A DNA stretch of 64,000 nt from Escherichia coli (GCF_044324785.1 NZ_CP172127.1), one strand, 5' to 3'; positions 61,859 through 63,082 are shown, counted from the first letter of the stretch. Notes: generated by a model from the sequence alone, not told the origin. Made by a program: numbers and translations.

Positions 61859-61867
61859 ATTATCGAT

Positions 61868-61893
61868 AACCCGGCAGCCACGTTCTGCCGGGT
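61868..61893 (+). terminator. Hairpin after livF, probable operon terminator
   Basis: CCCGGCAGCCACGTTCTGCCGGG stem-loop followed by a T-containing tract. Confidence 0.5.
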
Positions 61894-61976
61894 TATTCGT
61901 CCGTTTACAGACTTGTTTCGACTGACCGGGAGGATTAAAACCAGACCACTTATTTGCCACGGAAAGGTTCCCTCCC

Positions 61977-62723
61977 ATGCATTATGCCGTTGTCGTCATG
62001 CTTGAACTGCTTTGCTGTATTCACGCTTATCGCTCCGGACAAGAGCGATACTGGATTTTTATTATCTTCTGTTTTCCGGTGATTGGCTGCGTGGCGTATT
62101 TCGTCATGGTTATGCTGCCTGAAACGGGCGCTGACCGTCACGGGCGTACTTTGCTGATGCGCCTGCAGGACAAAATCAGCCCGGAACGCCACCTGCACAA
62201 ATTAACCGAAGAGCTGGCGATTGCCGAGACCAATCAAAACCATTATGCGTTAGCTAACGAACTGGCGCGCCTTGGGCGTTATCACGAAGCCGTTCCCCAT
62301 TATCAGCAGGCGTTAAGCGGAATTTTCGCCCATGAAGCGGTAATGATGTTAAGCCTGGCGCAGGCGCAATTTGCTATTCAGGAGTTCGCCGCCTGTCAGC
62401 AGACGCTGGAAGATGTGATGCGTTATAACCCCGATTTTCAGTCGGCAGACGGGCATTTGTTATTTGCCAGAGCGTTAGCCGCACAAGAAGAATACGCTGA
62501 TGCGGAAAGTGAGTTTGAAGTGTTGGTTTCTTATTACCCCGGCCCGCAGGCGCGTATTTACTATGCGGAAATGCTGGCGAAAATGAGTCGGTTACGTGAA
62601 GCCAACGAGCAGTATGTTGCTGTGGTTGATACGGCTAAACGCTCAAGAGCGCATTATAGAAAACACTACCGGGAATGGATTAAGACCGCCAATGAACGGT
62701 TGAAGCAGAGTGTGGTGCAATGA
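61977..62723 (+). CDS. Hypothetical protein: N-terminal two-helix membrane anchor resembling a PLD-N-terminal-type domain, then a helical TPR-like region
   Basis: 248 aa ORF between the livF terminator and ugpB; N-terminus YWIFIIFCFPVIGCVAYFVMVMLPE; RBS is weak. Confidence 0.55.
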   Translation: MHYAVVVMLELLCCIHAYRSGQERYWIFIIFCFPVIGCVAYFVMVMLPETGADRHGRTLLMRLQDKISPERHLHKLTEELAIAETNQNHYALANELARLGRYHEAVPHYQQALSGIFAHEAVMMLSLAQAQFAIQEFAACQQTLEDVMRYNPDFQSADGHLLFARALAAQEEYADAESEFEVLVSYYPGPQARIYYAEMLAKMSRLREANEQYVAVVDTAKRSRAHYRKHYREWIKTANERLKQSVVQ

Positions 62724-63082
62724 AAATCTTCTTTGCCGTTAGACAAGTGTCGCGGCAATCTTTTGTTAAAATTGAAAAATGTAGCTCTCATCGGGCAGCA
62801 AAACTGGACGCAGAATTTGCTGCCATTTTTGCTCTTCATGGTAAGGAGTTCTGGCGATTAGCTGGCCGTTAATCGCCTCTTTTCAGTGCATTCTCGGGAT
62901 ATCCGTGCCCCATCTCCCATTTTCCCTCACCCGTACCGTCACCGCCTTGTCATCTTTCTGACACCTTACTATCTTACAAATGTAACAAAAAAGTTATTTT
63001 TCTGTAATTCGAGCATGTCATGTTACCCCGCGAGCATAAAACGCGTGAATTCGCGCATTCGGTACAACAAGAGAGATAAACG

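Follow-up and report, generated by a model that had tools for sequence, protein, structure and literature searches.

The DNA analysed here (hereafter the window) is a stretch of 64,000 nucleotides from Escherichia coli (GCF_044324785.1, NZ_CP172127.1), read on one strand, in which the genes livM-livG-livF are followed by a gap of 1,226 bp and then by ugpB. The livF gene ends at position 61858 and ugpB starts at 63085. Between them lies a complete open reading frame (ORF) on the + strand (61977–62723), which starts with ATG and encodes 248 amino acids; it was delimited from the ORF list, Pfam, dN/dS, NCBI records and the Sakai annotation, and is called the TPR gene below, after the tetratricopeptide repeats (TPR) that follow a PLDc_N-type hairpin in its product. 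In K-12 MG1655, the livF-ugpB gap measures 398 bp and holds no annotated gene, in agreement with the value of about 400 bp given by a first-pass annotation of the window. The same annotation had proposed an extra complete gene preceded by a terminator hairpin of livF, and both elements were found.

A GC-rich hairpin (ATAACCCGGCAG / CTGCCGGGTTAT) is located right after the livF stop codon (61866–61896, + strand). According to an inverted-repeat search, its stem comprises 12 nt with 100% complementarity, and its RNA fold reaches –27.2 kcal/mol (z = –6.9). The U-tract is imperfect and the hairpin is absent from the list of a simple consensus terminator scan; it is the probable livF terminator. 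Upstream of the TPR ORF, no consensus sigma-70 promoter was found by a promoter scan, and the ORF has a weak Shine-Dalgarno sequence, AAGG, placed 9 nt before the ATG. Downstream of the gene, RNA folding of 62780–62890 gave a terminator-like hairpin (GGCAGCAAA...TTTGCTGCC then ATTTTTGC; 62794–62824, + strand), while a second one, followed by TCTTTTC, was detected at 62853–62877 (+ strand) by both the consensus scan and RNA folding.

The same downstream region contains what is left of a phd/yefM-type antitoxin gene, namely its 3' end (62765–62872, + strand; tblastn), enclosed in a 50-aa ORF (62720–62872) that overlaps the stop codon of the TPR gene (ATGA). The last 35 residues of this ORF, ending in AAKLDAEFAAIFALHGKEFWRLAGR, are 40% identical to the C-terminus of a Citrobacter Phd/YefM protein, and both have their stop codon at the identical position. 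With this alignment, the idea that the 50-aa ORF is a small gene coupled to the TPR gene was dropped in favor of an antitoxin relic. In Citrobacter freundii, a phd antitoxin paired with a Fic/Doc toxin is found between the TPR gene and ugpB (7738–8324 of the extracted locus), and E. coli carriers of the TPR gene appear to keep a relic of such a phd-fic/doc module from which the toxin gene is gone. The 176-bp relic stretch is missing from Escherichia sp. E1V33 and E. whittamii.

Two forms of the livF-ugpB spacer in E. coli

The variable segment of the spacer, to which no strand is assigned, extends from 61859 to 62899, as defined by alignment, megablast counts and a flanking-repeat search. In a four-way alignment, K-12 is colinear with the window through the livF stop codon, exactly where divergence starts, and again from position 62900; in place of these 1,041 bp, K-12 has about 215 bp of unrelated sequence. 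The adjoining stretch, 62900–63084 (+ strand), is the ugpB upstream (promoter) region. It was matched in 5,424 of the 5,426 complete E. coli genomes, carriers and non-carriers of the TPR gene alike, and 183 bp of it are 98.4% identical between K-12 and the window. The K-12 filler (2286–2500 of the extracted K-12 locus) comprises two REP-type palindromes, GCCTGATGCGCTGCGCTTATCAGGCCTAC and GCCTGATAAGGCGTTTACGCCGCATCCGGCA, and a near-copy of a filler REP, with 2 mismatches in 31, is present in the liv region of the window (56074–56104). In each E. coli genome, the K-12 spacer has matches at several places (median 11), and it therefore contains a dispersed repeat.

That the gene might be strain-variable, as had been suspected, was confirmed by mapping its presence or absence with BLASTN (megablast) over the 5,426 complete E. 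coli genomes. The TPR gene was carried by 659 of them (12%), full length in every case, and the K-12-type spacer by 4,630 (85%); approximately 137 genomes match neither type at a coverage of at least 80%. In one carrier, ECO2947, the TPR gene is split across two places, which suggests an insertion. Carriers include O157:H7 Sakai, O145:H28, ST38 and IAI39. The Sakai orthologue, ECs_4300, is annotated as “hypothetical protein”, RefSeq uses either this product name or “tetratricopeptide repeat protein”, and NCBI already lists the exact protein of the window for E. coli, on 262 contigs.

Two further observations concern the surrounding DNA. Over the 22 kb from 40000 to 61858 (zntA-ftsY-rpoH-liv), none of the 5,426 complete genomes exceeds 98.1% identity to the window, which therefore comes from a somewhat divergent lineage, without a close match among them. 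Besides, Sakai has an acetyltransferase and antitoxin pair (ECs_4307/ECs_4308; 6978–7778 of the extracted Sakai locus) between panM and livJ, the latter being labeled livK in the record.

The coding status of the ORF, which is unannotated at this position in K-12, was then considered. Its dN/dS was 0.089 against VCSW7, 0.187 against IAI39 and 0.102 against Sakai; against Citrobacter, dS was saturated and dN was 0.17. Because these dN/dS values range from 0.09 to 0.19, far from the poor coding statistics that would have spoken against the gene, the TPR gene is taken to be a working coding gene, intact and under purifying selection, and more than a chance reading frame.

Architecture of the predicted protein

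The product is predicted to consist of an N-terminal two-helix membrane hairpin, a linker helix and a compact TPR domain of about four repeats, with no catalytic domain. The hairpin spans residues 1–52 (61977–62132, + strand) with hydrophobic helices at residues 2–19 and 25–52, as delineated by hydropathy, AlphaFold2, the PLDc_N match and conservation; the mean Kyte-Doolittle value over 19 residues is 2.57 at residues 28–46. Pfam PLDc_N matches residues 26–43 (E = 1.1e-4, model positions 22–39 of 42), a marginal match that covers the second helix only and part of the model. Among 29 homologues, PLDc_N was matched in 7 at E ≤ 0.001 and in 15 at E ≤ 0.1. The protein can be assigned to the PLDc_N-hairpin type, marginally, from this profile match together with the two helices given by hydropathy and AlphaFold2.

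Approximately four TPR helix pairs follow at residues 86–222 (62232–62642, + strand; AlphaFold2, Foldseek and conservation), then capping helices at residues 225–244. Both profile matches and the predicted fold place the protein among TPR proteins: Pfam TPR_19 was matched at E = 7.9e-6 and TPR_1/TPR_2 at E = 1.3–1.4e-4, and 27 of the 29 homologues match TPR_19 at E ≤ 0.001. The AlphaFold2 model, made of the two-helix hairpin and the TPR helices, has a mean pLDDT of 88.5, with values of 94–98 over the TPR region (residues 80–240) and of 55–69 over residues 51–70, which include the linker (residues 54–70), so that the placement of the hairpin relative to the TPR domain is of low confidence. Foldseek aligned the TPR part with MamA, a consensus TPR, YrrB and OGT TPR domains (target-normalized TM-scores of 0.74–0.85). 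The first-pass annotation had described a hydrophobic pair of PLDc_N type followed by a TPR-like remainder; the profile searches recovered both parts, and the model matches solved TPR structures. Solved structures searched by sequence and by fold returned only generic TPR proteins, no catalytic HKD/PLD domain was found in the Pfam search, and the curated NCBIfam cut-off was reached by no model.

The protein was compared with known systems sharing one or the other of its parts. In ClsA-type proteins, the PLDc_N region (PF13396) likewise forms a membrane hairpin of two helices at the very N-terminus, and its second helix has the same W...P..G..(A)Y pattern. Unlike ClsA, the TPR protein has no PLD/HKD domains and ends at 248 aa, and its match leaves the first half of the Pfam model uncovered. 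The features of a ClsA-type cardiolipin synthase (two HKD motifs, HxKx4D, PLD domains) are lacking, and TIGR04265 scored 12.5 against a cut-off of 290 bits in a match confined to the N-terminal region. LapB (YciM), a TPR adaptor that is anchored in the inner membrane and serves the turnover of LpxC by FtsH, shares the general design of an N-terminal membrane anchor and a TPR adaptor domain, by analogy only, and one relative in the AlphaFold database is automatically labeled “LapB”. LapB is anchored by one transmembrane helix, is richer in TPR repeats and ends in a rubredoxin-type zinc site; the window protein has a pair of helices and about four repeats, and Cys motifs are absent from its C-terminus. 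No LapB model was present among the NCBIfam matches at E ≤ 1, and Cys is lacking throughout the last 100 residues.

MamA, YrrB, TTC0263 and the designed consensus TPR resemble residues 86–244 in fold (Foldseek E = 5e-5 to 1e-3, rmsd of 2.2–3.9 Å, sequence identity of 13–22%), but they are soluble and have neither the membrane hairpin nor the SADGHLL(Y/F)AR motif described below. The best partial NCBIfam match was that of CpoB/YbgF, a Tol-Pal associated protein (TIGR02795, E = 9.5e-7, residues 87–157), at 29.4 bits for a cut-off of 90.1; CpoB owes its export to a signal peptide, and its N-domain is a coiled coil, where the window protein has a membrane hairpin instead. For HemY, TIGR00540 scored 17.5 against 142. 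We place the protein in the TPR superfamily and, with less support, among PLDc_N hairpin proteins; it is neither a cardiolipin synthase nor LapB, CpoB or HemY.

Conservation and gene neighbors of the family

A profile built from the 29 homologues was searched against 1.84 billion cluster representatives. At E ≤ 1e-30, it retrieved at least 667 clusters (50% identity), nearly all of 240–255 aa and matched end to end. Full-length homologues were found down to 22–30% identity across Proteobacteria, the family being present in Pseudomonas, relatives of Xanthomonas/Lysobacter, Xenorhabdus, Gilliamella, Thiotrichales and Alphaproteobacteria. Full-length structural matches came from Xenorhabdus, Pseudomonas, Xanthomonas, Gilliamella and Maricaulis; the AlphaFold database search returned only uncharacterized family members, several of which are named “Cardiolipin synthase N-terminal domain-containing protein”.

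Conservation was evaluated on 141 family representatives with 22–46% identity to the window protein. Seven conserved residues lie in the hairpin (H16, G21, W26, P34, G37, Y41 and P48), one in the linker (P69) and five in the third and fourth repeats (H160, L161, A164, R165 and G189). In closer relatives, the third repeat carries a near-invariant motif, NPDFxSADGHLL(Y/F)AR (residues 151–165). In the TPR register that we infer, A164 corresponds to canonical position 8 and A176 to position 20, and D158, L161 and R165 would fall at positions 2, 5 and 9. These three positions normally line the concave ligand-binding groove of TPR domains.

The gene neighborhood was analyzed at 80 loci, one genome per species, with ORFs clustered by all-against-all BLASTP. 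No gene neighbor was conserved beyond single lineages, the maximum being 13 loci, all from Lysobacterales. At 12–13 loci of Luteimonas, Lysobacter and Pseudoxanthomonas, the gene order is dnaE-accA-X-tilS, with 24 bp between accA and the family member that follows it; this is the sole tight association seen for the family, and the two genes are possibly co-transcribed. In about 12 further lineages, the neighbors (monooxygenase, GST, ABC ATPase, PhzF, GlcD, photolyase, phosphatase, TrpA) have unrelated functions, and in Pseudomonas and Exilibacterium the TPR-family gene also stands beside unrelated genes. Guilt-by-association was ruled out as a route to function by these unrelated neighbors across lineages. 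None of the PADLOC defense-system models matched the window protein at E ≤ 0.01, and a literature search for a TPR gene between livF and ugpB, for ECs4300 or for PLDc_N combined with TPR found nothing on the TPR gene. The gene is already catalogued, and its family is widespread, uncharacterized and of an ordinary architectural kind.

Origin of the TPR gene and its loss in K-12

The slot between livF and ugpB also holds the TPR gene in Citrobacter freundii, Citrobacter sp. NCU1 and a Pseudocitrobacter MAG, as well as in Escherichia sp. E1V33, Escherichia sp. MOD1-EC7003, E. whittamii and E. albertii. Between the window and Sakai, dS is 0.205 for the TPR gene, compared with 0.237 for livF, 0.176 for livG and 0.175 for livM. 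The GC content of the gene (50.5%) is typical of the window (51.4%). No direct or inverted repeats flanking the variable segment were found, and the ORF list contains no recombinase, integrase or transposase near the gene; the marks of a mobile element or genomic islet are lacking. A mobile-element origin had been considered for the TPR gene and was ruled out when flanking repeats were not found. Taken together, the shared slot, a dS like that of the flanking liv genes and the absence of mobile-element marks argue that the presence of the gene is ancestral and that the K-12 state is a derived loss. The question of an insertion or a deletion in K-12, which the first-pass annotation had left open, is answered by the slot shared by Escherichia, Citrobacter and Pseudocitrobacter in favor of the loss. 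According to these comparisons of sequence, the TPR gene is an accessory gene that is ancestral at this slot in the Escherichia/Citrobacter lineage and was inherited vertically; the ancestors of K-12 and of about 85% of E. coli lost it. The loss occurred by replacement, the gene and the downstream relic being swapped for a short REP-containing spacer. The upstream side of the slot varies too, since the spacer from livF to the TPR gene reaches about 525–535 bp in E. whittamii and E. albertii (6475–7001 and 6464–7001 of the extracted loci) vs. 118 bp in the window.

Two other histories were weighed against an ancestral and still functional gene. A recent horizontal insertion in the lineage of the window strain, for instance as a small genomic islet, would fit the presence of the gene in just 12% of the complete genomes and the toxin-antitoxin relic in the same slot, such modules being often mobile. 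It is nevertheless highly improbable given that E. albertii, E. whittamii, other Escherichia species, Citrobacter and Pseudocitrobacter have the gene at the same place, that its dS equals that of its liv neighbors, that its composition is typical and its borders are free of repeats and of integrase or transposase genes, and that K-12 departs from the window precisely at the livF stop codon. The ORF could instead be a decaying remnant that is nearing loss in E. coli and whose function is gone: it is absent from most E. coli, the scan gave no consensus promoter for it and the adjacent DNA harbors a gene relic. However, a sequence that is preserved intact over its whole length in 659 genomes, with a dN/dS of about 0.1–0.2 over a dS of up to 0.2 and with every family-invariant residue kept, is hardly that of a decaying gene, and we consider this scenario very unlikely.

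Discussion

The best explanation of these results, which we hold to be probable, is that the TPR gene is an ancestral and constrained gene, mostly lost in E. coli, whose product is an inner-membrane-tethered, non-enzymatic TPR adaptor. The protein would sit in the inner membrane as an adaptor or scaffold without enzymatic activity, its TPR domain most likely facing the cytoplasm. At the surface of the membrane, the TPR groove, with its near-invariant SADGHLL(Y/F)AR motif, would hold a partner that is a protein or a peptide.

The orientation of the TPR domain was assessed from the distribution of charges. In the window protein, the 29 residues after the second helix contain six Lys/Arg, vs. two in the nine-residue loop between the helices, which favors a cytoplasmic TPR domain. 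Such a Lys/Arg cluster normally blocks the export of the domain that follows it. In the family as a whole, the mean number of Lys/Arg is 2.15 per 9 loop residues and 6.19 per 29 residues after the second helix; as these densities are similar, a periplasmic TPR domain is possible. From the sequences, we would regard the cytoplasmic orientation as roughly twice as likely as the periplasmic one.

In the reversed topology, the architecture would be the same with the loop in the cytoplasm and the TPR domain in the periplasm, where it could serve an envelope role like those of CpoB/YbgF or YfgM. The two Arg of the short loop (R19 and R23), the net charge of +1.7 of the family loop and the fact that the best partial NCBIfam match is the periplasmic YbgF are all compatible with this topology. 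It is opposed by the Lys/Arg cluster following the second helix and by the score of the YbgF match, which is far under the cut-off and reflects generic TPR similarity, and we see it as a less likely but serious alternative. If the PLDc_N hairpin served, for instance, to regulate or bind cardiolipin synthase, the protein would act in membrane-lipid metabolism. Such a role would be in line with the W-x7-P-x2-G-x2-AY pattern of the second helix, modeled by Pfam as PLDc_N, with the weak similarity to the N-terminal region of TIGR04265, the cardiolipin synthase model (E = 0.051), and with the position of the Lysobacterales gene just downstream of accA. In ClsA itself, a review notes, no function is known for the motif conserved in the second hydrophobic region (PMC9385802). 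Yet no HKD/PLDc domain accompanies the hairpin, the score of 12.5 bits is remote from the cut-off, and the accA adjacency is limited to one order, the neighbors found elsewhere being unrelated to lipids; a lipid role as such is therefore judged very unlikely.

Going beyond the membrane-tethered adaptor that we favor, the family may use its ClsA-like hairpin to reach a particular membrane site or partner and recruit a client through the SADGHLL(Y/F)AR groove, which would define a new tethered adaptor or regulator. This more specific proposal is speculative and unlikely; it could possibly involve a link to cardiolipin or envelope-lipid homeostasis.

For E. coli, these results indicate that the livF-ugpB spacer is dimorphic and that the K-12 state is the derived one, correcting a blind spot of K-12-centric annotation. 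The TPR gene is kept in medically important lineages, namely O157:H7, O145:H28, ST38 and IAI39-like strains. For the family, at least 667 clusters join the functionally unexplained N-terminal hairpin of ClsA type to a TPR domain. A membrane-tethered TPR protein is of an ordinary kind and the expected pay-off is modest; natural carriers and non-carriers provide a simple route to a phenotype for an unstudied conserved family. If the client-recruiting proposal were true, naturally polymorphic E. coli would constitute a ready genetic system to define this family.
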